64,000 nucleotides of DNA from Deltaproteobacteria bacterium (GTDB taxonomy: Bacteria > Myxococcota_A > Polyangia > JAAYKL01). The notes under the pieces were generated by a model, which saw nothing but the letters and a program-made list of their open reading frames with translations, was not told the origin of the DNA and did not search any database. The stretch is taken from contig JAFGQN010000203.1 of NCBI GenBank assembly GCA_016935665.1, positions 49,237 through 113,236 on the forward strand, written 5' to 3'. Within the stretch, counting starts at the first letter, position 1, and every line of letters begins with the position of its first letter. Positions 18,490 to 32,011 of the stretch are shown here, in pieces. A program made the translations under genes and the position numbers.

Positions 18490-19113
18490 TTAAAGACGCC
18501 GATAGACACCCATCACAACACCCAGTAACTGCATGGGGAGAAAATCCTGACGACGAACCATGACAGGTGAGCAGTTGCTGTTGGCGGGCACAAAGCGGAT
18601 ATGGTCCCGCTCTGGATGATAATAGCGCACTGCTGCATTGTCTCCCAGAAGCGCCACCACCACATCGCCTTTTTCGGCAAACATCTGCTTTTTAACAAAG
18701 ATAAAATCGCCATTGTGAATTCCAGCCTGCAACATGGCATCGCCGTTCACCCACATGCCAAATACTTCTTTGGTATTGCCAAGCAGGAACCGGTCAACGG
18801 TGATGTAATCTTCGATGTTCTGTTCTGAGAGAACAGGCTGTCCGGCAGTAACGCGACCCACAACTGGAATTTTAACCGTATCAGACTGCTTTTTGTCTTC
18901 CATGTTGACAGGCCTTAGCGCACGCGATTTCATGTCTTCGCGTTTTAAATACCCTTTGCGCTCCAATGCTCTCAAATGGTCGTTCACACCGTTGGTCGAA
19001 CGAATTCCCATGTGTCGTCCAATTTCACGCAACGTTGGGGGGTAACCGCGTTCTGTAATGGAGCTGGTGATGTAGTCGAGCACTTTTTCCTGTCTTTTGG
19101 TCAATCCTTGCAT
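18490..19113 (-). CDS. lexA: LexA-family repressor with Ala at the catalytic-Ser position (wHTH + S24 peptidase-like domain)
   Basis: wHTH MQGLTKRQEKVLDYITSSITERGYPPTLREIGRHMGIRSTNGVNDHLRALERKGYL. Ala-Gly cleavage site (RVTAGQPV) and Lys (FIFVKKQ) are present, but the GDSM nucleophile motif reads GDAM (codon gcc, checked in the nucleotide sequence). Start ATG preceded by GGAGGAAAAAAAAACGT. Confidence 0.8.
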   Translation of the reverse strand: MQGLTKRQEKVLDYITSSITERGYPPTLREIGRHMGIRSTNGVNDHLRALERKGYLKREDMKSRALRPVNMEDKKQSDTVKIPVVGRVTAGQPVLSEQNIEDYITVDRFLLGNTKEVFGMWVNGDAMLQAGIHNGDFIFVKKQMFAEKGDVVVALLGDNAAVRYYHPERDHIRFVPANSNCSPVMVRRQDFLPMQLLGVVMGVYRRL

Positions 19114-19157: not shown

Positions 19158-19258
19158 TAAGTGATAGTGATACTACTGAACAAGAGAATACAGAGTCAAA
19201 TTGTTGGCATTAATTTTGTGAAAATTATGGAATTGTTTTTGGGCAGGAGCAAATTTAA

Positions 19259-22200
19259 TTAGCGGATTAGTGCGGATTCGCTGTTCATGCGTTCTGTAAT
19301 CAGCACAAACTTCTGAAAGTCGGTATAGTGTTCTGGTGCAATTCGCTGGATGTTAAGGTGTGTTTTCCGTTCGATACGCACACGGTGATTTTCTGTTTCA
19401 GTTTCATAGCGGATGCAATATTCGGCACGCCCGCTGGCGTCCGACACGCATTGGGATTGCGGAAGCTGTGAAACCGCAAGGGTTTGAGGTAATTCAATAT
19501 CAACAACATAAGTGGATTTCATATAAGTGGCCAATACCAGTGGCATCGCGCGTTTTGCCAGACCGCCTGTCAACTGCGTGAAATCGGTTTTGAGTGGAAT
19601 AAACAAGTGGCTGCCGTTTGCTGTCTGCTGCAGCATTCCCTCCAATCGGATGTGGTACACCACAGTGAGAGGCACATCGCCATCGTGGATATTTCGAAGT
19701 GAAAAATCCTGCAGTACCGCTTCGGGAAACTTCGATGCCAGCAGATGTTCTTCTACAATTCGACGGTGCTCAGATTTTGAACCTTTAAACAGCGACCGCA
19801 ACAACGATGCCATTTCGCCAGTAATGGATTCTGTTACGGTGCCTGTGCCGCTACCATTGTCGTCGAGCGCAATAGTGGCGTCTATTACTGTTTCATCCAG
19901 AGGGATTCGTCCGGAATTTGTTTTTGCTATCTCACATGTATCTGGCAGCAACACGGATTGATGCTTCAGTTCTGCTGGCAATGTTCCCATTAAGGTCTCG
20001 TCGGCATCCATATGAACCCACGTGCCATCCGGCAGCAAAATCAACGGACTGCTATAGCGATTCATGTCCGGAATAGCGGAACGGGTGTGGTCACCCCACG
20101 CATGAGTGGCCAGTCCCAACCTGGCGTTGATACCCACTGCATTTAACATTGTTTGGAACAGACGCGCCCGGTTGCCCCGTCGACGACTGTAAATGTGTGT
20201 AACAGGCTCAAAGAGCATTGAGTCGTTTTCGATGTTTCGAATAATCCAGGTGTATATCCGATCGGCCTTTTTCGAATCGGGTGCATTTGACTCACCCTTC
20301 AGCGCAATTTTTGTGGCGAACTGTTTCAACTTTGGACTCTGCTGTGATTTACCGTGCAACAGTGTTGTATACCACTCACAGAGTGCTCTGTTGTTCGCCG
20401 CCGCCGTCACGCGAACAGACGGTAGGAATTCGAGGGCATCCGGTGTGTCCGGCTCGCTTTGCAGCGGTTCGATATTGCGGCGTCTAAAGGTGACCACCTG
20501 AATATTATCTGTCAGGCGCGTATTTGGTTCGGGCGCATCTCCCCGTGGGTCAAACTGCAGCGGCATTTCCCTCGGCGCAACAACAATCAGTTCCGAGCGT
20601 ACAAAAGTACTGTTGAAATCCTGAAAAAAGAACGGCTCGGAGTCAAAACCTCCCTTGAATACGTCATGTGGCGGCAGATAGCTGATGCCTTCATATTCCA
20701 CGTAATCGCCAATGGCCAGTCTGGGCATCGACAATGTGGATTTGTTATCGATGGGAGATGGATACAGCACACTTAAATCCGGTTTGATAACTCTGGCCTG
20801 AAGAATTTCGGCTCCTGGAGGAACAGGGAGTTCGCCATACTCGCTGACGGCATCCATGGAGTTGATGCGCCCCACCCAGTGCACCAAACGCATCCCGGCG
20901 CCAAACTTATCGATTATAAGCACCATTCTATCCAGCACCCACGAAAAGTCTCTATCGCTGGTGGAATTTCCTGCCTGATAATCCGCAACCACTTTCAAAC
21001 CATCCACACGATAGGAATTTATCGACATGCCTCCAGCCACTTCGTCACAAGCATACTGCAAATCAGGTCGAAGGGGCATGGCAGCCTGACTGCGACAGAT
21101 CTCCATGGCCTTCTTCGTCTGTGATGTGGCGTGGTATGCGTCAATCAAATACAGTTTGGGCGCCATGGCCAACGGAAATCTTTTATTCGCGGCATTCAAC
21201 TGGGAAATGGCATCTGTTTCTTTGCCCGCGTGTAACAGCGCCATGGCCGTGTCTATTGCGGCTTCGGGAGAAAACGGCGTCTGCTGCGAAATATGCGCCA
21301 GTTCTCCTGCGGCGGCATCAAACTTTAAACGTCTTGAAAATTCAGTAGCCAGGGCGGTGTTGGATAGCGTGCACTTTGTAATTTGTTGCGCCGTTTCCAT
21401 TGCATCATCAAATCGATTTTCCTCAACTGAAAACGCATAGTCCCACATCAGGATGGGGCAGGCATTGTCGCCAAGAATGGTCTTTGCCCCCATAAGATAT
21501 TCCTGTGCAAATGGCATCCATCTTTTTTCATACGCCAACTCCGCAGCGGTCAGATAAAGCGTTGGCTCCTTTGGCGCGGCCTTAATGGATTCATTTACAA
21601 TATCAAATGCGTCCTGCGTGCGCTCATTGCGGTTCGCTGCCTGCGCCAGAAAACGCGCCGCCCTGTACAGACGCGAATCCCTTTGAAACGCGTGTTCATA
21701 TTGCTGCCGCGCCGTTTCCATGCCCGTTTCGATTGCATTGTACGGAGACGTCAGGGCCGCTTCCGCTTTTAAAAGCGCTTGAAAAGGAGCGTTGTCGTTC
21801 AGCTTTGACACCTCCGCCTGCCACTGGTGGGGCGCCACATTCCACAGGTTGTATCGCAATTGGGCCAATCGAGCCGATTCCGAAAGCGGAGCGGGAAAAC
21901 GAATCCCAGTTAATTTCGTCGGTATTGGGGCAGTGGTGAGCGGGAATGATTCGGAGTCATGCAACAGGACCGATTGGTGCATGGTGATCGCCGCCAGGGA
22001 AAATGACGGAGTGTACTCGGTGGCAAATGCCGAAACACTTATCTGGTGACTCCCCGGCGGCAGTGTCGCCGAAAGCCATCTGCTTTCAGGGAGCCATCGT
22101 TCCTGAGAGGTCTGGATGTATGCTGCTTCTCCATCGATATAAATAGTGGCATCGGAATTGCTCTGAAAACGAAACCATACCGTTTGAGGTGTTGAAAGAT

Positions 22201-22930
22201 GGATAGCGGTGCGGGCGACAACATATCCGGTGTTGTCGTCTGGCAGGGGTTGCGACGTAATTTGACACACATCAAACGTGCGATTCTCCACGGGGATCAA
22301 CGGGCGGCCGGCGCCAGCGGACAGCTGCCCTGGCCATATGGGCGATTCAATCAGTTTCGCAAGAGAACGTCTGCCCGTTATGTCTGTTGATAGAGGACCA
22401 GTCAGTTGCCATCGTAAAAGACAGCCCGTATTCTCAAGCAGTTTGAGCGCATCGTCATGTCCCCGTTTCTGTGCAAAGGAAAACTGAAGAATGCGTAATT
22501 GAAACAAGGCTTCAGGCGACAGTGTACCCGGTGCTGCGGACCATTCTTTCAGATGCGGCGAAATGCGTTGCTCAAAATTTTGCACGCGGTGCCGCAACTG
22601 AACCAGCGCAATCGCCGCTGCGGTCCCTTCCCAGAATAGATTCGGCGCTGTACGCGCGACCGAAACGGTGCGTAGATATTTTTCAAACGCTTCCTCGGGA
22701 GTTCCTGTTTCATCCAGAATATATGCCAATATGTAGTTCGCCTCAGGCGTATTGCGTTGACGCAGTTGGTTTTCCAGGGAGGCAATATCGCTTTCTTTGA
22801 AAAAAAGCGACTTTGCCGGCGCTTGCCCACCGCTCCAATTTTGTGAATGAACCGTTTGGGCGGGGATAGAAGCGCAGGATGAAATAAAAAGATACAGCAG
22901 TATGATAACAGCGTTCAACGAGCGAAACAT
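19259..22930 (-). CDS. Large secreted TPR/repeat protein with a degenerate transglutaminase-like domain (Cys and His lost)
   Basis: 1,223 aa. Signal peptide MFRSLNAVIILLYLFISSCAS. The segment aligned to the paralogue's catalytic core reads RRGNRARLFQTMLNAVGINARLGLA and ...SSPLILLPDGTWVHMDAD. The start ATG overlaps the upstream gene's TAA by 1 nt. Confidence 0.6.
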   Translation of the reverse strand: MFRSLNAVIILLYLFISSCASIPAQTVHSQNWSGGQAPAKSLFFKESDIASLENQLRQRNTPEANYILAYILDETGTPEEAFEKYLRTVSVARTAPNLFWEGTAAAIALVQLRHRVQNFEQRISPHLKEWSAAPGTLSPEALFQLRILQFSFAQKRGHDDALKLLENTGCLLRWQLTGPLSTDITGRRSLAKLIESPIWPGQLSAGAGRPLIPVENRTFDVCQITSQPLPDDNTGYVVARTAIHLSTPQTVWFRFQSNSDATIYIDGEAAYIQTSQERWLPESRWLSATLPPGSHQISVSAFATEYTPSFSLAAITMHQSVLLHDSESFPLTTAPIPTKLTGIRFPAPLSESARLAQLRYNLWNVAPHQWQAEVSKLNDNAPFQALLKAEAALTSPYNAIETGMETARQQYEHAFQRDSRLYRAARFLAQAANRNERTQDAFDIVNESIKAAPKEPTLYLTAAELAYEKRWMPFAQEYLMGAKTILGDNACPILMWDYAFSVEENRFDDAMETAQQITKCTLSNTALATEFSRRLKFDAAAGELAHISQQTPFSPEAAIDTAMALLHAGKETDAISQLNAANKRFPLAMAPKLYLIDAYHATSQTKKAMEICRSQAAMPLRPDLQYACDEVAGGMSINSYRVDGLKVVADYQAGNSTSDRDFSWVLDRMVLIIDKFGAGMRLVHWVGRINSMDAVSEYGELPVPPGAEILQARVIKPDLSVLYPSPIDNKSTLSMPRLAIGDYVEYEGISYLPPHDVFKGGFDSEPFFFQDFNSTFVRSELIVVAPREMPLQFDPRGDAPEPNTRLTDNIQVVTFRRRNIEPLQSEPDTPDALEFLPSVRVTAAANNRALCEWYTTLLHGKSQQSPKLKQFATKIALKGESNAPDSKKADRIYTWIIRNIENDSMLFEPVTHIYSRRRGNRARLFQTMLNAVGINARLGLATHAWGDHTRSAIPDMNRYSSPLILLPDGTWVHMDADETLMGTLPAELKHQSVLLPDTCEIAKTNSGRIPLDETVIDATIALDDNGSGTGTVTESITGEMASLLRSLFKGSKSEHRRIVEEHLLASKFPEAVLQDFSLRNIHDGDVPLTVVYHIRLEGMLQQTANGSHLFIPLKTDFTQLTGGLAKRAMPLVLATYMKSTYVVDIELPQTLAVSQLPQSQCVSDASGRAEYCIRYETETENHRVRIERKTHLNIQRIAPEHYTDFQKFVLITERMNSESALIR

Positions 22931-25900
22931 TATTTTGCTTCTCCTTTGCGATGGAGCGTAATTCGCGCGCGCTCCGCCGCGTCCACCGCCAGTACAAACC
23001 GCAGGAAATCGCCATATTCAGACACCTCCACCACCTGCTTTGTCAAACTGAATGTGCGTGTCACCGTCAGTCCTCCCGCTGTTTTTCGAATGCGTCGCTC
23101 ATACGCGCCAAAGTCGGAGACAATGCGGGCATCGTTGACAGGTGTTTCGGCGTTGTACTGATGTGGAACAAGATACCGAATGGTCAGCTCCGTTGTGCGG
23201 GCGGGGCCCACCTGTAGCGGGTGACGTCGTTTTTGCAACGGAGCAAATTTGGGCTTTAGTTTCATGGGAGGCATTACTTCAAATGACAGGGTCCCAAAAT
23301 TTTGTTTCGCCAACTGCGGTATCCGGGCAAAAAAGGCAATCTGAGGGGTTTTTTCCAGGTCTTTCAAATTTAAAAAGTCAGACGATTCCATTTGAATGGC
23401 GGGATATCGTTCGGAAAACCGTTCTTCAAGAATCTGCTTATCGCTGGCGGTTGCGAACGTGGTGCGCAGCCATGGTGCAAAAGGCGCCCCGGATGCGCTC
23501 ATCGTTCCGTTTATGGTTGCGCTGCCATCCGATGCAATGGTTATCGTCTCTGTTTCAATAAACGTGGATGCAGCGCTGTCACGGACAGTCGTATTTCGCA
23601 ATTTTACAGGTGAAACACCAATCACCAGCGCCTCTATCCCCTGGTCTTCGAAGGGCATGTCGTTTACCCCATGAAATGTGGCTGTCCCATCCAGCCATAA
23701 ATCGTATTTGGGTACGTATGCAATGGCGTGATTGAACAGTGAGAGGGAAGGGTGCTGCATGCGTATCTGACCAGCGGACCGGGTACGCACAAGCGCTACA
23801 TGGGCCTGTATACCGGCTTCGTTCAACATGGCTACCAGAAGAGTGGCGGTGTCTTTGCAATCGCCAAAGCCGCGGGCACGCACCTGAGAGGTACTGTATG
23901 GTTTGTAGCCATGAATACCAAATTCCAGACCCACGTATCGGATGTTGGTAGTTACCCAGCTGTAAACGGCTGCAATTTTATCCCGGTCGTTTCGACGATT
24001 TCTAATCAATTTCTGAACCAGCGATTTCAGCGATGTGTCCCCTTTGAGCTGGGGACGAATCAGTTCCGCGTACCACGATTCCATTTGGGACCAATCCTGC
24101 CAGGAGGTGGCGTGGACGTATTCCACCAGCGACATAGCGCCGGGGACATCCGGCTCGTCGGGGATGGCAGGGAGATTTTGTGCTGTAAATACAGTTATAT
24201 CCATATCATCCGCCTTTGTGTCAACTCTACGGACGGGGGTGGACAGTTCAAAGTATACTGGAAACGTTTTGGGGCGTATGAGGGCAAACTGGAACAGCGC
24301 CACCGGGATATCGCTGTTGATCGGGATAATGGTGCCAAAGTAGTTTCCAAACATATTCTCCTGGCCAATATCATCAACGCGAAATTGAAATTCCACCACA
24401 TCTCCCACGGCCGGTCTGGGCAATTCCACCACTTCCGCCTCAATGTCGTAATAGAGCCGATACCAGGGTTCTGACACCGGGAAGGTGGCGCGTCCTGTGG
24501 CCTGTTCGATGGTGCCATCGGTTTTGAACAACCGGGCCTTAAGCAGCTGAATCGTCTGAGTGGAGGAAAATTGCTCGCTGTACTGCTGCCATTGTCTGGC
24601 GCCATCGTCGGTGGCGATATAAGCAACCACCTGCGTGACGGTGGACGACAGACCGTTTTCGTGGACCTGAATGACGGTGTTGTTTACCAGGAGACAGTCC
24701 TCCTGCCGGTTTTCACAGAAGTGGCCTTTTTTTGTAAATGTTTGTGGGGAAATAAGCCAGGGCGTCGCCAGCGTGTCCTCCGGTTGCAGGAATGACAGAT
24801 ATGCACGCAATTGGGTATCCTGCGGGGATTGCCGCAAACTGCCGGTCAGATATGTAAGCGCGCGATCTTTGTCTCTGTGGATATAAAACTCTCCGGCAAA
24901 CTTTCGGTATTCACTAACCCCCGGCGCTTTTGCATGCAGGTCATCGAGGAGGGCAATCAGTGGTTTGGTGAGAGAAGCGCCGTCCATCAGTTTCGCCAGT
25001 TCGAGAACCGTTTCAATGGGGGGCGCGCCAATGAGCTGCCAGGATTTCAATGTTTGCTGTACGGATTTGTCAATGCCATCCACCGACAAACGCAGTATCT
25101 GCAGATGACGGTCGAAATTCCCAAAATCGCTGTCCAGCGCTTTTTTTAAAATGGTTGTTGTGTGTACATCTGCCGGCATCCCTTCCTGGCTATCGGCCAC
25201 ACAACCGGCGAGCAGCGGGGAGAGGGGACGGCCGATGAGCTGTTTTCTGAGTTGTCGCCCGGTCTCCGGCAGAAATATATTGTAGTAATTGAGTATCGCA
25301 CAAATGACTTCATCGGATGCGTCCGGGCGTTTTGACGCTTCGATAAGATCGAACTGCGCATTGCGATAAAGCGGCGCGGCAGCGTCCAAAATCAGCAGTT
25401 TCGTTTTGGCTTCTGCATTTTCCACATCCTTTTCCAAAACATGCATATATGCCTGGCGCTGCTCATTCACATCCAATGTCAGTTGTGCGGCTGTGAAGCA
25501 GAACTCGAAGGACTTCAATTCCTCACAGGCGCTGAATGCGGCATCCCTTTGAGCGGTGTCTTTTTTTGCGGCGCCGGTCAGATGTGCGTACTTTGCAAAA
25601 TAGCCGTTATGGGCAGGACGCACAGGTCCTTTGGGCGCAGGTTTTAACAGTTGCAGCAGAGACGCCGACTTTGGCGCCGTCGCCACTTCAGTGTGAACGG
25701 GGGGACGAAATTCGGCACGCTCATTAAACGGGAGCACTGGCTGTTCGTTGGAATCGAGAAACCGGGCGTAAAAAGAAAGGGTACCACTCTCATCGCTGCA
25801 GACTTTGACAGTGATGCTTTCTTTGCCCTGTTCCAGCCGCACGGGGATGTGGAATCTGTTTATATCGGCGTCGTCAAATTGGGTATCTTCCAAAACCCGC

Positions 25901-26535
25901 GTATTATTGACGTAGACCCGTGCCTGACCTCCGGCGCCAAACCAAAGATGATAGTTGTCGGTGCGCGGAACGGCCACATGGGTTTGTGCGACAACACATA
26001 TATCTTTTGCTGATGAGAAGAGGGGTTCCATCGTTACTTTTCCAAGACGATGAGAGAGCCAGCTGGATTGGAACAGACATGGCCCTGCGCTTTTGGACGG
26101 TGTGCAATTGGGTGCCGTTGGCAGTGGTGCGGGTGAATCATTGTCGATGATAAACGATTCAGCAAGTCCTGTGCCCGACTCGTTGGGAAATGGACCGGCA
26201 AATTGCCACCGGGTTAAAAATCCCATTTGTTCAATCGCATGGTTGGCGTCTTTGGGGTGGCCAGTCATGAGTTTTAAAGTGGCCAGCAGATGACGGGCCC
26301 GGTGTCTTGCGGCCGGCTGCAAAGCGGGGAGCTGCAGTGCGCTTTCCAGCTCGGCGGTGGCAACCTTTGCTCCAAATGAACCATACTGCTCAAAAATCTG
26401 CAAAACGAGCAAATCGGCAAAACGGGAATTCGGTTTTTGCTTCAACACTGAGAGTGCTCTGGAGTCTGCCAGTGCCGAAGTTGCTGCGAGCAGCGTGCAC
26501 ATGACCCCCAATAAAAACAGTTTACGTATCTTCAT
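22930..26535 (-). CDS. Large secreted protein with an intact transglutaminase-like cysteine-protease core (DUF3857/DUF3858-like architecture)
   Basis: About 1,200 aa. Signal peptide MKIRKLFLLGVMCTLLAATSALA. Core RGFGDCKDTATLLVAMLNEAGIQAHVALV (Cys), FNHAIAYV (His) and LWLDGTA (Asp). Start chosen at the MKIRK ATG; the track uses an upstream TTG at 26571. Confidence 0.7.
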   Translation of the reverse strand: MKIRKLFLLGVMCTLLAATSALADSRALSVLKQKPNSRFADLLVLQIFEQYGSFGAKVATAELESALQLPALQPAARHRARHLLATLKLMTGHPKDANHAIEQMGFLTRWQFAGPFPNESGTGLAESFIIDNDSPAPLPTAPNCTPSKSAGPCLFQSSWLSHRLGKVTMEPLFSSAKDICVVAQTHVAVPRTDNYHLWFGAGGQARVYVNNTRVLEDTQFDDADINRFHIPVRLEQGKESITVKVCSDESGTLSFYARFLDSNEQPVLPFNERAEFRPPVHTEVATAPKSASLLQLLKPAPKGPVRPAHNGYFAKYAHLTGAAKKDTAQRDAAFSACEELKSFEFCFTAAQLTLDVNEQRQAYMHVLEKDVENAEAKTKLLILDAAAPLYRNAQFDLIEASKRPDASDEVICAILNYYNIFLPETGRQLRKQLIGRPLSPLLAGCVADSQEGMPADVHTTTILKKALDSDFGNFDRHLQILRLSVDGIDKSVQQTLKSWQLIGAPPIETVLELAKLMDGASLTKPLIALLDDLHAKAPGVSEYRKFAGEFYIHRDKDRALTYLTGSLRQSPQDTQLRAYLSFLQPEDTLATPWLISPQTFTKKGHFCENRQEDCLLVNNTVIQVHENGLSSTVTQVVAYIATDDGARQWQQYSEQFSSTQTIQLLKARLFKTDGTIEQATGRATFPVSEPWYRLYYDIEAEVVELPRPAVGDVVEFQFRVDDIGQENMFGNYFGTIIPINSDIPVALFQFALIRPKTFPVYFELSTPVRRVDTKADDMDITVFTAQNLPAIPDEPDVPGAMSLVEYVHATSWQDWSQMESWYAELIRPQLKGDTSLKSLVQKLIRNRRNDRDKIAAVYSWVTTNIRYVGLEFGIHGYKPYSTSQVRARGFGDCKDTATLLVAMLNEAGIQAHVALVRTRSAGQIRMQHPSLSLFNHAIAYVPKYDLWLDGTATFHGVNDMPFEDQGIEALVIGVSPVKLRNTTVRDSAASTFIETETITIASDGSATINGTMSASGAPFAPWLRTTFATASDKQILEERFSERYPAIQMESSDFLNLKDLEKTPQIAFFARIPQLAKQNFGTLSFEVMPPMKLKPKFAPLQKRRHPLQVGPARTTELTIRYLVPHQYNAETPVNDARIVSDFGAYERRIRKTAGGLTVTRTFSLTKQVVEVSEYGDFLRFVLAVDAAERARITLHRKGEAK

Positions 26536-26704
26536 TTGACGTGAGTATAAGAGGCTGCGTTGGAAAAGCAATTTGGATTTAAAATGAATGAATGCGAAGC
26601 CCTGTTTTTCAATTCAATCCTCCGTTATCGTTTGACCTGTGCGCCCAGACCTTGTCTTATGCCGACAATCAACTATGTGGAAAGTTCCCTTAAACAGAGT
26701 GGAT

Positions 26705-27841
26705 TCAGCTCAAGGCGTCTTTTAAATCATCGAGCAAATCCGGAGTATCCTCGATGCCCAGTGAGAGTCGTACATTGGTTTTTTTGATTCCGGCGGCGAT
26801 GCGGGCCTCTTTGGTCATGGATGCGTGGCTCATGAACCAGGGCGCCTCCGCCAGCGATTCGATACCTCCCAGCGATTCGGCCAGAGTGAAATAGTTGAGT
26901 CGGCTGAAAAAAACATTGAGATCCATTGCACCGGGTTTAAAATCAAAACTGACCATTCCCCCAAAACCACTCATTTGCCGTTTGGCCAACGCGTGCCCCG
27001 GATGGGTGGCAAGGCCCGGGTAATAGGTGGTCTCCACTTTATCGTGATTCTGCAGAAACTCCGCCACCGCCGTGGCATTTCGTGTATGCTGCGCCATTCG
27101 AATTCCCAGCGTTTTAACACCGCGCAACACCAGCCATGCATCGAACGGCGCCTCACTGATGCCCAATGCGTTTACATTGAACTGAACCTGTTCGGCCAGC
27201 TCTGTGGTGGAGGATACAATCACGCCTCCCACAACATCGCTGTGTCCGTTGATGTACTTGGTGGTGGAGTGAATGACAATATCAATACCGAGCCGCAGCG
27301 GCTTTTGGTAATACGGCGTCATGAAGGTATTATCCACAACGCTAAGAGCCCCGTGTTTGCGTGCAATGGATGCCACGGCTTCCAAATCCACAATATTCAG
27401 CAGCGGATTGGACGGTGTTTCTATCCACACCATTTTGGTATTGGGGCGCAGGGCGACCTTGAGATTGTGGGGATTTCGCATGTCCACGAAGGTGAATTCG
27501 ATGCCCATGCGGGAAAAGACCGCATCCATTAATCGAAATGTGCCACCGTAAATATCATTTCCGCTAACCACGTGATCACCGGCCTTAAGCAGATGCAGAA
27601 CCCCGGTGACGGCACTCATTCCCGTTGACGTGCATCGGGCATCCACGCCTTCCTCAAGAGTCGCAATGTTCTCTTCCGCAGCCCGGCGCGTTGGATTGCC
27701 GGAGCGGGTATAATCGTATCCGGTGTTGGTGTGAATGTCACTGAATGCAAAATTGGAGGAGGTGTACAGCGGCGTGGTCACCGACCGGTACTGGGAATCC
27801 TTGGCCACCCCTGTGTGTACTGCTTTTGTATTAAACCCCAT
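26705..27841 (-). CDS. PLP-dependent Cys/Met-metabolism enzyme (cystathionine gamma-synthase / beta-lyase / methionine gamma-lyase family)
   Basis: YTRSGNPTRRAAEENIATLEEG and the PLP-Lys region STTKYINGHSDVVGGV. 378 aa. Confidence 0.8.
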   Translation of the reverse strand: MGFNTKAVHTGVAKDSQYRSVTTPLYTSSNFAFSDIHTNTGYDYTRSGNPTRRAAEENIATLEEGVDARCTSTGMSAVTGVLHLLKAGDHVVSGNDIYGGTFRLMDAVFSRMGIEFTFVDMRNPHNLKVALRPNTKMVWIETPSNPLLNIVDLEAVASIARKHGALSVVDNTFMTPYYQKPLRLGIDIVIHSTTKYINGHSDVVGGVIVSSTTELAEQVQFNVNALGISEAPFDAWLVLRGVKTLGIRMAQHTRNATAVAEFLQNHDKVETTYYPGLATHPGHALAKRQMSGFGGMVSFDFKPGAMDLNVFFSRLNYFTLAESLGGIESLAEAPWFMSHASMTKEARIAAGIKKTNVRLSLGIEDTPDLLDDLKDALS

Positions 27842-28040
27842 ATCTATTTCCTTTGTCTGTCAGTCTCTAAAATAAAATTCATGGTCCAAATTAAAGTGGT
27901 AAACTAATTCCAATTTACGGCTGTGTAAACTGAAAACAGACGGTGCAATGAAAATTAACCATTTCGATTTCACGCAGGTATCCGTGTCAACAAACGCTGC
28001 GAACCAACACAATAAAAGGGGAAGTAAATAGAGGAGGAGG

Positions 28041-29777
28041 TTATTCGCTGTCTTTGCTGTCCGCTTTTTCAGCAATTTGACCAATCTGGCTGCTGAGCAA
28101 ATCTCCAAGAGTTGCCTTTTCAGTGGGCTTCCTGGCCATTTTGCGAGCGTATTCCGTCATGTCGCCTTCTTCCTCATTGCCAGTCAAAGACTTGATGGAA
28201 AGACCAATTTTTCTTTCCTGAGGATCGAGGGTAATGATTTCTGCCTTAATGGTTTCACCTTCCTGGATGATGCTTTTGGGATCATCAATGCGCTCATTGC
28301 TGAGTTCGGAAACGTGAATCAGACCTTCGATGCCGGGCTCCAGCTCAACAAATGCGCCAAAGTCCGTAATCTTGATCACTTTTACCTCGCGAACCTGACC
28401 CAGTGGGTAGTCCATGGGAATTCTTTCCCACGGATCTTCGTACAGCTGTTTGATACCCAGACTGACTTTTTCTTCCTCGTGGTCGATGTTGAGGATAACC
28501 GCTTCAACTTCTTCGCCTTTGCGGAAAAGCTCAGACGGGTGATTGATGCGCTGCGTCCATGAGAGGTCGCTTTTGTGAACCATGCCGTCGATGTTGTCAT
28601 CAATGCCGATGAACACACCATAGTCGGTGATGGAGCGGATTTTACCTTTGATGGTGTTGCCTGGCTGATACTGCTCGATGAAGCGCTCCCATGGATGCGG
28701 TTCAAGTTGCTTGAGACCCAGGGAGATGCGCTGTGCGCTGGTGTCCACGTCGAGAATGACGCATTCCACTTCGTCGCCCACTTCCAAAACTTTGGAGGGG
28801 TGCTTCACGCGCTTGGTCCAGCTCATCTCGGAAACATGAATAAGTCCTTCGATGCCCTGTTCCAATTCAACAAATGCGCCGTAATCGGTAACGGAAACAA
28901 CTTTGCCGCTGACCTTGAGGCCGATGGGATAACGGGATACTGCATCTTCCCATGGATCGGGCTGAGTTTGTTTCAGACCAAGAGATACGCGCTCGTTGTC
29001 TTCGTTGTACTTGAGGACGCGCACTTCAATCTTATCACCCACTTTAAGGATTTCAGAGGGGTGACCAATGCGGCCCCAACTCATGTCGGTGATGTGGAGC
29101 AGACCATCGATACCGCCGAGATCCACGAACGCACCGTACTCGGTGATGTTCTTGACGATACCCTCGATGATGGCGCCTTCCTGGAGGTTCTCCAGTGTGT
29201 GCTCTTTCATCTGGTTACGTTCCTGCTCAAGAAGTGCTCTTCTGGAAAGAACGATATTGCCACGCTTCTTGTTGAATTTAATGATTTTGAATCTGTGGGT
29301 CTCGCCTATCAGTTTTTCAAGATTTCTGATTGGGCGCAAATCCACCTGCGAACCAGGAAGGAAGGCTTTCACACCACCAGCAATGGTCACTGAAAGACCG
29401 CCTTTTACGCGTTGGCTAATGGTCCCCTCAATGATGGATTCCTGATCACATGCATCGGAGATGTCGTCCCAAACACGCATCTTGTCTGCCTTCTCTTTCG
29501 AAAGCTCAACCAGTCCGTGTTCGTTTTCAAGCTCGTTCAGATAAACTTCGATCTTCTGACCGAGTTCAACTGATACCCTGCCGTCGGGTGCCGTGAATTG
29601 AGAGATAGGGATTTCTCCCTCGGATTTGTAGCCAATGTCAACGATGACAAAGTCTTTGCTGACTTTGACAACGGTGCCATTGATGATGTTTCCCTCCTCC
29701 AGGGACTTTTCCTGCTCAAAAGATCCTTCGAGCAATTGTTCAAAATCGGTTGCTTGGGCTGTTTTAATATCGTTCAT
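28041..29777 (-). CDS. rpsA: 30S ribosomal protein S1
   Basis: 578 aa with six tandem S1 domains (repeated G-x-V-x-x-[IV]-x-x-[FY]-G-x-F-V motifs). cmk lies immediately upstream, the classic cmk-rpsA arrangement. Confidence 0.9.
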   Translation of the reverse strand: MNDIKTAQATDFEQLLEGSFEQEKSLEEGNIINGTVVKVSKDFVIVDIGYKSEGEIPISQFTAPDGRVSVELGQKIEVYLNELENEHGLVELSKEKADKMRVWDDISDACDQESIIEGTISQRVKGGLSVTIAGGVKAFLPGSQVDLRPIRNLEKLIGETHRFKIIKFNKKRGNIVLSRRALLEQERNQMKEHTLENLQEGAIIEGIVKNITEYGAFVDLGGIDGLLHITDMSWGRIGHPSEILKVGDKIEVRVLKYNEDNERVSLGLKQTQPDPWEDAVSRYPIGLKVSGKVVSVTDYGAFVELEQGIEGLIHVSEMSWTKRVKHPSKVLEVGDEVECVILDVDTSAQRISLGLKQLEPHPWERFIEQYQPGNTIKGKIRSITDYGVFIGIDDNIDGMVHKSDLSWTQRINHPSELFRKGEEVEAVILNIDHEEEKVSLGIKQLYEDPWERIPMDYPLGQVREVKVIKITDFGAFVELEPGIEGLIHVSELSNERIDDPKSIIQEGETIKAEIITLDPQERKIGLSIKSLTGNEEEGDMTEYARKMARKPTEKATLGDLLSSQIGQIAEKADSKDSE

Positions 29778-29947
29778 TCTTTCTGTTGTATTGGCCTCGT
29801 GGCCACACTCCTCTCATCTGTCTGCCGTCGGAAATACCGTGGTTAAAGGTTAAATTTTTTTGAAATGGTCCGGTAAAACCTTCGACTGCGACGCAGGCAC
29901 CTTTATATTCTTTTTGTACGGAAGTCAAAGATTTTCAGTGGAAAATA

Positions 29948-30625
29948 TCAGGAATACCGACTAATTACTGAACGAGTGATAAGTTGAATTACTTCATTGG
30001 CAGATATGTCCTCGCAATTGACTTCTTTGGCGTCATCTGCCTTACGCAACGGAGCCACCTCGCGACAGGCATCTCGTTCGTCGCGAATCTCCTGGGCCTT
30101 TTCCACGTCATCCAGGGAAACGTCCTCACCTTTTTCCTTTAACTGCAGGTAACGGCGACGGGCGCGTTCTTTAGCGGACGCAACCAGAAAGAATTTTGCC
30201 TCAGCGTCGGGAAACACCACCGTGCCTATATCTCTTCCTTCCAGCACCACACCGCCATTGATTCCCATCTGTCGTTGAATATCGAGCAACACCTCGCGCA
30301 CTTCGGAATGTTTGGCAACAGTAGATGCGCCTTCGCTCATTTCCGGCGTTCGAATCATGTCCCCCAAAGGCGCACCATCCAGCAGCAGATTCCCTTCCAA
30401 ATCGAAGGCGAAATGGTGCGTTGCCGCTTCCTTCGCCACGGCCGCACCATTTTGCCAATCCACATTCTTTGTTTTGGCGGCAAACGCCACTGACCGATAG
30501 ATGGCGCCTGTGTCGATAAATTGATAATTCAAAGCGGATGCGACTCCTTTGGCAACGGTGCTCTTACCTACGCCGGAAGGCCCGTCAATGGCCACCACTG
30601 GTTTAGATCTCCTCATATAACTCAC
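29948..30625 (-). CDS. cmk: Cytidylate kinase
   Basis: P-loop VVAIDGPSGVGKSTVAKGVASALNYQFIDTGAIYRSVA. Confidence 0.85.
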   Translation of the reverse strand: MSYMRRSKPVVAIDGPSGVGKSTVAKGVASALNYQFIDTGAIYRSVAFAAKTKNVDWQNGAAVAKEAATHHFAFDLEGNLLLDGAPLGDMIRTPEMSEGASTVAKHSEVREVLLDIQRQMGINGGVVLEGRDIGTVVFPDAEAKFFLVASAKERARRRYLQLKEKGEDVSLDDVEKAQEIRDERDACREVAPLRKADDAKEVNCEDISANEVIQLITRSVISRYS

Positions 30626-30645
30626 TCCTCATTTCAGTTGGATTA

Positions 30646-31668
30646 CTAATTCACCATATTTCTGATCTGCATAATGGGCTCAATCAGCTGTTTCAGTTTG
30701 TCGACATCGTTCAGAGAGAATCCAACAGAGGTTTTTAATCGATTCCCTTTGGCGTCGATTTTTATTTTTTTTATCAGCGATTTTACGCCGAGCATAGCTA
30801 TCAACACGTTGGAAGAGATGGACTTCAGCTCCTGATTCACCCGCGATGCCGCTTCAGTGGCATTTTCTGCATCATCCATGATTGCGTTGGCGCGAAACGA
30901 TATTCCTTCACCAAAGTGGAGCCTGGCGCTGGCGTGTTGAACCTTTTGCGACAGCCTGCCGTATGCGGGAGGCAGGTATTCGAGATATCCGTTTTTGCGC
31001 AGACCATCCCCGCGAACATACAAAGACGCCGCCCCCGCCTTTTTCGGCATTTCGATTTTCTGCAATACAGGGGTATCTCTCAATGTCTTTGTTTTCCGGG
31101 CCATGCACAACGTAACTGTTTCCTCCAGATGATCACTTACGATTGCCAGGGTCCGTTCAGAAACGGCAAAAACGTCGATGTTGCGAATTTTGAGTTTTTT
31201 CTGCCCAATTGTCCGGGCTCTAAGCCGCTTATTATCCACCAGTTGTTTGAGAATGACATCGGTATCCCAATCTCCCTTTAACAGGGCCACAAATCCATCG
31301 GGCTCATCTGGAGAACGGTGTCCGCTGGCGGTGAAAACTTCATCGGCTTTGTTTAAGGTGGACAGGACAAAATCTTTGCTGAGTAACGACTCGCTATAAT
31401 ATGAATTCAATAAGAATTTCAAAGTTGGCCAAATAGGAGATGTGCGAATTTCCTGGAGATTCACCCAGCTGACGCCCTGAAGACCATCCGGTGCCAGCAT
31501 CGCCAGATCCGCGTCGAGGGGAGGACGCTCGCCAACCACATTCAATACCTGGCTGGAGATAATGGTGCTCTGTTTGGGCGCGCAGGCTGTGAGAATCAGC
31601 ATCATCATCCAAACGCCCAGGATTTTTATTCCGGCTATATTATTCTTCATTTTTGACACCTCAGTCAC
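30646..31668 (-). CDS. Hypothetical lipoprotein (first gene of the apparent lipoprotein-cmk-rpsA transcription unit)
   Basis: Lipobox LILTACAPKQ. No recognisable domain. Gaps of 20 and 170 bp to the downstream genes on the same strand. Confidence 0.4.
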   Translation of the reverse strand: MTEVSKMKNNIAGIKILGVWMMMLILTACAPKQSTIISSQVLNVVGERPPLDADLAMLAPDGLQGVSWVNLQEIRTSPIWPTLKFLLNSYYSESLLSKDFVLSTLNKADEVFTASGHRSPDEPDGFVALLKGDWDTDVILKQLVDNKRLRARTIGQKKLKIRNIDVFAVSERTLAIVSDHLEETVTLCMARKTKTLRDTPVLQKIEMPKKAGAASLYVRGDGLRKNGYLEYLPPAYGRLSQKVQHASARLHFGEGISFRANAIMDDAENATEAASRVNQELKSISSNVLIAMLGVKSLIKKIKIDAKGNRLKTSVGFSLNDVDKLKQLIEPIMQIRNMVN

Positions 31669-32011
31669 TGCGGGATTTCCCAGGTCACCTTAACATTCGC
31701 GTACACCAGATACCTCAGAAAAGCAGCTACTGGCAAGCGAAGATAATGAATCGATATCCACCCGCCGTACAATAGCACAGGTGCGAATTAAAAGTGCCAG
31801 TGCGAATCCTTTTTTCCTGATTTTACTTTGGCGAACACAATCTTCAATAATTGTTTTTTTTGCTAACAGCTGGTAATTGATTAGATAATCCGTATCCGAC
31901 AAAGCTGTGTCTGTATCCGAAGACGATGGTTCAATTGTTGCTAGAGCACTTGCCGCACTTCATTCGAATTATATTTCGAAGATAAATGTTTATATAAAAA
32001 AAGGAATAGTA

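Follow-up and report, generated by a model that had tools for sequence, protein, structure and literature searches.

We analyzed a window of 64,000 nucleotides (nt) from a Deltaproteobacteria bacterium (contig JAFGQN010000203.1, positions 49,237 to 113,236 of the forward strand) and focused on two tandem genes of the minus strand, designated A (upstream) and B (downstream). Gene A (22930..26535, minus strand) encodes a protein of 1201 amino acids (aa) deposited at NCBI as MBN2530034.1, "DUF3857 domain-containing protein"; its open reading frame (ORF) spans 22930..26571 (minus strand), and the ATG at 26535 yields the 1201-aa protein of NCBI. Gene B (19259..22930, minus strand) encodes a catalytically degenerate paralogue of 1223 aa (MBN2530033.1). 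Relatives of the two proteins are referred to here as A-type and B-type. At the junction of the genes (22928..22946, minus strand), AAGGAG at 22941-22946 is followed by TAATG at 22928-22932, in which one base is common to the stop codon of A and the start codon of B (a 1-nt overlap). The AAGGAG is a Shine-Dalgarno sequence of B's own, located 10 nt ahead of its ATG. A sequence-only reading of the window had described tandem genes of about 1,200 aa with overlapping stop and start; the two ORFs and the TAATG agree with that description, and such overlaps were also present in dozens of species.

Domain architecture of proteins A and B

Protein A begins with an ordinary signal peptide of the signal peptidase I type (residues 1-23, MKIRKLFLLGVMCTLLAATSALA, ending in TSALA and followed by D; 26467..26535; these and all following coordinates for features of A and B are on the minus strand). 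The next feature is a PA14-like beta-sandwich (residues ~106-267, 25735..26220) that starts with W-x-[FV]-x-GPF. The PA14 match was weak (Pfam PF07691, 15.1 bits against a cut-off of 24, E 0.02), and the AlphaFold2 model had strands in this region at low predicted local distance difference test (pLDDT) scores. Over residues 106-267, A was 29% identical to the N-terminal part of P0061, a "serine hydrolase" from Verrucomicrobia (DUF3471 plus beta-lactamase), and the N-terminal beta-sandwich is therefore taken to be a mobile module common to unrelated exported hydrolases. A TPR-like helical repeat solenoid follows (residues ~290-610, 24706..25668); the Pfam search returned no TPR call in this copy of A. 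The remainder of the protein holds DUF3857 (residues 627-791, 24163..24657; Pfam PF12969, E 2.6e-18, 67.1 bits against a cut-off of 24.6), a transglutaminase-like core (residues 838-960, 23656..24024; Pfam Transglut_core PF01841, E 4.9e-10, 40.1 bits against a cut-off of 23) and a DUF3858 match (residues 1120-1186, 22978..23178) in a domain that itself covers residues ~990-1196. The DUF3858 match (PF12970, 22.5 bits) was below the 27-bit cut-off; the DUF3858 fold was present in the A model.

The putative catalytic residues of A are Cys893 (codon 23857-23859, motif GFGDC893KD), His936 (codon 23728-23730, motif FNH936AIAYV) and Asp949 (codon 23689-23691, motif LWLD949G). In the A model, C893 opens helix 870-883, strand 911-918 carries H936, and D949 comes just after strand 923-925 (helix and strand limits in mature numbering). 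This is the arrangement of a catalytic triad, in which a Cys opens the core helix, a His is on the next beta-strand, and an Asp or Asn is the third residue.

At the N-terminus of protein B is a signal of the lipoprotein type (residues 1-19, MFRSLNAVIILLYLFISS-C19, with LFISS ahead of C19; 22874..22930). The lipoprotein nature of this signal (LFISSC19) is an addition to the sequence-only reading. The PA14-like beta-sandwich of B (residues ~175-316, 21983..22408; model strands at pLDDT ~60-78) is collinear with that of A. In this region of moderate confidence, the B model gave local Foldseek matches of ~110 columns to 3AC0 and 7KNC, two glycosidases that contain PA14 domains. The TPR solenoid of B (residues ~350-650, 20981..21883) was called by Pfam as TPR_16 and TPR_14. 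Two cysteines within it, C491 and C520 (about 21371-21460), were almost invariant across 20 B-type proteins and may form a disulfide in the periplasm. The "repeat-rich N-terminal regions" of the sequence-only reading thus correspond to the PA14-like beta-sandwich and, after it, the TPR-type helical solenoid. C-terminal to the solenoid, B holds DUF3857 (residues ~662-822, 20465..20947; Pfam E 8.8e-07, 29.5 bits against a cut-off of 24.6), a degenerate transglutaminase-like core (residues 882-976, 20003..20287; Pfam Transglut_core, 26.2 bits against a cut-off of 23) and a DUF3858 match (residues 1126-1217, 19280..19555; Pfam 27.7 bits, cut-off 27) that also has a fold match to PDB 3KD4.

The former Cys site of B reads RRRGNR921ARLF, in which G919-N920-R921 (R921 codon 20168-20170) occupies the place of A's G-D-C. 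S961 stands at the His position (YSS961PLILL), and M974/D975 are at the Asp position; the Cys-His-Asp triad, when looked for in B, was absent. The equivalent catalytic helix opens at C893 in the A model and at R921 in the B model. Because both BLASTP and MAFFT insert a 5-residue gap between A and B at the Cys turn, the earlier phrase "Arg at the Cys position" is a structural statement, not one of column identity. Under either alignment, B is without a nucleophile. The sequence-only reading had called the upstream paralogue catalytically intact, quoting GFGDCKD, NHAIAYV and LWLDG, and the downstream one degenerate; the triad of A, and in B the models' placement of Arg921 at the Cys position together with Ser961 in place of the His, uphold both calls.

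The AlphaFold2 models were single-chain models of A and B, each built from a 9-sequence alignment, and were good only in their C-terminal halves (pLDDT about 75-95), the N-terminal halves being poor. Both models matched the three-domain fold of 3KD4, which was the best fold match of the B model (E 3e-28). Together with the Pfam matches, this fold supports the earlier assignment of transglutaminase-like C-terminal domains to both proteins. By BLASTP, the C-terminal 500 residues of A and B were 23% identical (E 1e-19), and the N-terminal beta-sandwiches were linked weakly. Comparison of A-type and B-type profiles (20 plus 20 sequences) with hhalign gave a probability of 100% and E 4.2e-93, with 15% identity across 1093 collinear columns. 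A neighbour-joining tree built on the C-terminal 610 residues placed the 70 A-type sequences in one clade and the 35 B-type sequences in another; the rooting of this tree is loose because the 3 outgroup sequences did not cluster together. On these alignments, A and B are judged to be full-length collinear paralogues. A homologue search with a 60-sequence alignment of A and B together returned no new family members and was dominated by unrelated TPR proteins.

Conservation of the pair across species

We scanned one genome per GTDB species with an A-type alignment and searched the resulting 80 loci locally with hidden Markov models (HMMs). Loci with at least 3 kb of sequence downstream of A were considered informative (n = 71). 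Nearly all of the loci were from Myxococcota (Polyangiales, Sandaracinus, Labilithrix, Enhygromyxa, Myxococcus, and Corallococcus), with a few from metagenome-assembled genomes labelled Acidobacteriota. A B-type gene lay directly after the A-type gene on the same strand at 63 of the 71 informative loci, and the pair is thus conserved in relatives that amount to dozens of species. The start of B overlapped the stop of A by 4 nt at 48 of these 63 loci (ATGA 37 times, GTGA 11 times) and by 1 nt at a further 4, for a total of 52/63 with either overlap.

The difference between the two copies was equally consistent. The C-H-D triad was kept in 82 of 83 A-type proteins. Neither the Cys nor the His was present in any of 58 B-type proteins, where the motif was R-x-G-[NSHD]-R, and none of the cysteines in the B-type core was conserved. 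Pfam recognized Transglut_core in 20/20 A-type relatives compared to 2/20 B-type relatives, and scored DUF3857 above the gathering score in 20/20 and 19/20, respectively. For TPR, Pfam gave matches in 16 of the 20 A-type relatives as well as in B. Conservation among A-type proteins peaked in the catalytic core, where RYVxLEFGIHGxxPY, RxFGDCKD, FxHAIxYVP, and LDGTA were each conserved at ~90% or higher. Among B-type proteins the peak was DUF3857 (D667, G677, H684, E700, P704, K716, D718, G741, D742, E745, E747, F769, P786, E826, and P837), with G919 and R921 as further conserved residues.

A single-sequence search with mature B as the query, run against 1.84 billion cluster representatives, gave 1859 matches at E<=1e-3, of which 955 reached E<=1e-10 and 342 reached E<=1e-30. 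All of the best 149 representatives were B-type, and a motif of the G-D-C-K-D type occurred in none of them. Their median full length was 1245 aa. Since the B-type family is large, stable in length and without the motif, B is best described as an old, selected pseudoenzyme and not a recent pseudogene. We considered whether B could instead be a decaying duplicate, a pseudogene or functionless relic of A. The loss of the catalytic Cys and His would suit such a relic, as would the neighbour-joining tree, in which divergence within the B-type proteins was greater than within the A-type proteins. However, the ORF of B is intact over 1223 codons, full-length B-type genes were present at 63 loci, and at least 342 clusters at E<=1e-30 share a steady length near 1245 aa, invariant residues of their own, and a lipobox. 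Decay of B is effectively excluded by these conservation data, and we regard it as the least probable of the explanations considered.

The export signals of the window extended across species as well, in agreement with the earlier statement that both proteins carry signal sequences. A-type N-termini, read at 17 loci, had ordinary signal peptides. A lipobox was found by a strict rule in 41 of the 52 B-type proteins with overlapping starts, with several more recognized by eye, and by a simple rule in 90 of 106 full-length representatives. B-type proteins are, by these rules, mostly predicted lipoproteins.

No other gene accompanied the pair with comparable regularity. Clustering of the flanking ORFs of 83 loci gave no family in more than 21 loci, and the largest clusters were generic (GGDEF/FHA, UbiA, cNMP-binding, and TPR proteins). 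With no conserved neighbor, the A-B pair is the conserved unit. On the distant contig L002, an A-like and a B-like gene are 3 nt apart and are followed by a peptidase M16 gene, not by lexA. The pairing of an enzyme with a dead paralogue is not universal in the wider DUF3857 family, as a generic DUF3857 protein of Duganella had no dead paralogue alongside.

A proposed envelope module and its alternatives

The conserved pairing points to a real two-protein module of the cell envelope. In the scenario that we favor, one ancient duplication of an exported protein of ~1,200 residues would have given rise to A and B. The ancestor would have had the layout still seen in both: a signal, a short helical segment, a PA14-like beta-sandwich, a TPR solenoid, DUF3857, a transglutaminase/papain-like core, and DUF3858. 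The upstream copy, A, would have remained an enzyme, exported in soluble form, with its triad and surrounding motifs almost invariant. The downstream copy, B, would have lost the nucleophile and the His and become a lipoprotein, its constraint having moved to DUF3857. One mRNA would encode both proteins, and the overlapping stop and start would favor their coupled synthesis. Most likely, B would then be a non-catalytic partner, anchored in a membrane of the cell envelope, that docks A and positions it, regulates it or presents substrate to it. The target of A would be an envelope or surface polymer, in which it would cleave or transfer an amide bond of the peptide, isopeptide, or glycan-peptide kind. 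We infer with moderate confidence that a membrane-anchored pseudoenzyme, B, partners a soluble cysteine enzyme, A, in the envelope. The domain content, fold, catalytic status, paralogy, signal types, and conservation of both the pair and its overlap come directly from the data; the complex, the membrane, the chemistry, and the substrate are the inferred parts of this proposal. For the heteromeric complex that the sequence-only reading suggested, the evidence is indirect and consists of the conserved adjacency and the overlap of stop and start.

Several observations weigh against it. Eight loci (L015, L025, L038, L046, L051, L062, L070, and L071) had an A-type gene with an intact triad and no adjacent B; all eight were of the Myxococcus/Corallococcus type, adjacency being judged at the locus only. 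A can thus apparently exist without a neighboring B. A has also not visibly taken over the anchoring in such cases, since the three Myxococcus-type loci with readable N-termini (L025, L046, and L062) had ordinary signals; the idea that A becomes a lipoprotein where B is absent was rejected on these signals. At several Acidobacteriota-labelled loci (L052, L056, L061, and L076), the pair and the 4-nt overlap were kept, but the signal of B looked ordinary and had no clear lipobox. The PA14 assignment is weak, because the N-terminal halves of both models were of low confidence. Finally, protease, amidase, and cross-linking activity of A are not distinguishable from sequence alone. As a separate observation on one of these loci, L046 is titled "Comamonas sp. 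KCTC 72670" and yet is closely similar to the Myxococcus loci; that record may be mislabelled or contaminated.

The loci without an adjacent B speak for the main rival explanation, namely that A and B are co-regulated but independent. B would then be a non-catalytic binding protein or adhesin, built of a PA14-like domain, TPR and DUF3857, that acts on the same envelope or surface material as A with no complex between them. The Shine-Dalgarno sequence of B's own is compatible with such independence, and the conserved residues of B lie in DUF3857 and not at a recognizable interface. Against this, adjacency, order and overlap (4 nt at 48 of 63 loci) have been kept while A and B have diverged to 15% identity, which exceeds what co-regulation would need, and no other neighbor has been conserved with them. 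We regard independent action as possible but rather unlikely.

A second alternative is a variant of the complex model, in which B would be a latency or inhibitory partner that binds A or the substrate of A and silences the enzyme until a signal arrives, like a trans-acting pro-domain or decoy. The evidence for it is the same as for the complex (adjacency, overlap and paralogy), with one feature in addition. In B-type proteins, the helix of the former active site opens with G-[NS]-R, of which G919 is present in 97% of the sequences and R921 in 85%; this conservation suggests a pocket kept for binding. However, the rest of the B-type core is poorly conserved, and inhibition, activation and anchoring are indistinguishable on the present evidence. 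A specifically inhibitory role for B seems to us improbable, although less so than decay.

Returning to the membrane-anchored partnership of A and B, a bolder form of it can be sketched, in which the pair, found in most of the Myxococcota lineages sampled and in some Acidobacteriota-labelled genomes, would be a new envelope machine. In this form, the pair would be a heterodimer tethered to the outer membrane; its lipoprotein pseudo-transglutaminase would recruit the soluble partner, a cysteine amidase or transferase, and steer it to a polymer of the surface or cell wall. Rapid evolution of the pair would reflect encounters with other cells, such as prey, kin, or phage, and not housekeeping. 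We offer this more detailed version tentatively and would not expect it to hold in full.

Comparison with known proteins places the pair in a familiar domain family that is itself already known and annotated. The structural type of DUF3857 plus Transglut_core plus DUF3858, as in A and B, is BDI_1141 of Parabacteroides distasonis (PDB 3KD4, "putative protease"), the only solved structure of the family. At 505 residues, it is without the PA14-like or TPR N-terminal half that A and B have. In a phmmer alignment to residues 751-916 of A, 3KD4 has G-T-P where A has G-D-C, and it therefore appears, like B, to be without the nucleophile Cys. Unlike A and B, it is not known as part of an enzyme/pseudoenzyme pair.

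Other systems share the fold or a theme with the pair and differ from it in most respects. LapG and HvyA, periplasmic cysteine proteases of the bacterial transglutaminase-like type (BTLCP), belong to a different Pfam family, and the BTLCP Pfam model returned no match for A or B. These are small single-domain proteins (LapG has 181 residues in 4FGO) without DUF3857, DUF3858, TPR, or a PA14-like domain, and LapD, the partner of LapG, is not known to be a dead paralogue. PeiW, a pseudomurein endo-isopeptidase, is a phage/provirus enzyme of methanogens; it is without DUF3857, DUF3858, and a pseudoenzyme partner and has no sequence-level match to the pair. B resembles the PEP-CTERM TPR-repeat lipoprotein PrsT in combining a lipoprotein signal with TPRs, and residues 403-617 of B gave a weak match to PrsT TIGR02917 (41.6 bits against a cut-off of 312.2). 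Membership of B in the PrsT family was rejected, the score being far under the cut-off and the match being confined to the TPR part. In eukaryotes, PNGase and Rad4/XPC, and likewise TGM and band 4.2 (EPB42), are transglutaminase-fold relatives of which one is an enzyme and the other a pseudoenzyme, the same theme as in A and B. Those relatives are not co-operonic, not exported and set in unrelated domain contexts, unlike A and B, and they are not known as heterodimers with the active paralogue. Eukaryotic inactive paralogues of this fold act as binders (PMC10318531). Among the structural neighbors, LapG acts in adhesin release, PeiW in cell-wall isopeptide cleavage and PNGase in glycan-peptide amide cleavage, and HvyA is described in capsule control. 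These proteins illustrate the range of the fold; they do not tell the activity of A.

Full-text literature searches for DUF3857, DUF3858, BDI_1141, and transglutaminase together with Myxococcus yielded passing mentions only and no function. These mentions were of a gene next to lolA in Xanthomonas and of proteins in a Tannerella vesicle proteome. In the searched literature we found no description of the giant PA14-like/TPR subfamily, of an enzyme/pseudoenzyme tandem, or of a lipoprotein dead copy. Gram-negative envelopes commonly contain proteins that combine DUF3857 and DUF3858 with a transglutaminase core. One large subfamily takes the form of a seemingly obligate tandem, in which an intact enzyme is paired with a lipoprotein pseudoenzyme in fixed order and with overlapping translation across a phylum, and this gives a testable handle on the biology of the family in the form of a binder, a cutter, and a target. 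It also provides a bacterial, operon-encoded case of an enzyme/pseudoenzyme theme that, for this fold, is known mainly from eukaryotes. The pair by itself does not answer a long-standing question.

Neighboring genes and divergence of the locus

In the window, the genes 5' of A on the coding strand are cmk, rpsA, and a gene for a Cys/Met pyridoxal phosphate (PLP) enzyme. Those 3' of B are lexA, an amine oxidase gene (opposite strand), an FKBP gene, hisI, and hisG. The genes around the pair are housekeeping genes. The position of the pair directly upstream of lexA, as the sequence-only reading had it, is correct for the window, where lexA (18490-19113, minus strand) lies 145 nt downstream of B. 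The close relative L001, a metagenome contig from ENA, has the same order of A, B, lexA, FKBP, hisI, and hisG.

This adjacency raised the question of whether the pair belongs to an SOS/DNA-damage regulon or is functionally tied to lexA. In its favor, lexA is on the same strand as the pair and also follows it in L001, L003, and L004. These three and the window are, however, the only 4 of 83 loci at which lexA is found there, and lexA has a promoter-like site of its own, TTGACT-18-TAGTAT (19170..19199, minus strand), which is not part of the pair. Within that site is an SOS-box-like motif, GTA-N6-TGTTCAG (19176-19191, minus strand), that was invariant in the window, L001, L003, and L004. The SOS box of M. 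xanthus is CTRHAMRYBYGTTCAGS; the lexA motif has its GTTCAG half and matches it at 13 of 17 positions (PMC9705874). No other exact copy of the motif was found in the window, and none was found before gene A. Given the promoter-like site and the sole exact copy of the motif, lexA is read as its own transcription unit; with adjacency in only 4/83 loci, its position carries no functional weight for the pair. Both A and B are, moreover, exported. A functional tie of the pair to lexA or the SOS response is effectively excluded, and the chance that we allow it is very small. A copy of the motif with one mismatch is present at 31689-31704 (minus strand), just upstream of an ORF at 30646-31668 (minus strand) that encodes 340 aa with no Pfam match. 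That ORF is possibly another LexA target, judging from the motif.

We compared the pair in the window (19259-26535) with the corresponding stretch of L001 (10001-17253). A was 49% and B 41% identical between the two, and the identities of the neighbors were 96% for LexA, 92% for HisI, 91% for HisG, and 85% for FKBP. The pair therefore evolves several times faster than its neighbors in this comparison. Islands of conservation coincided with DUF3857 in both proteins and, in A, also with the core. At 41-49% protein identity, synonymous sites are saturated. The divergence fits exposed, fast-evolving envelope proteins; diversifying selection, relaxed constraint, and allele replacement would all be compatible with it.

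The synteny that the window shares with L001 ends precisely where gene A begins (L001 1-9715 compared to window 26536-31668). Upstream of A, L001 has flaG, fliD, fliS, and a flagellin gene, whereas the window has cmk, rpsA, and the gene for the Cys/Met PLP enzyme in this place. Since it is unusual for Myxococcota to have flagellar genes, the lineage may lie outside the classical myxobacteria.

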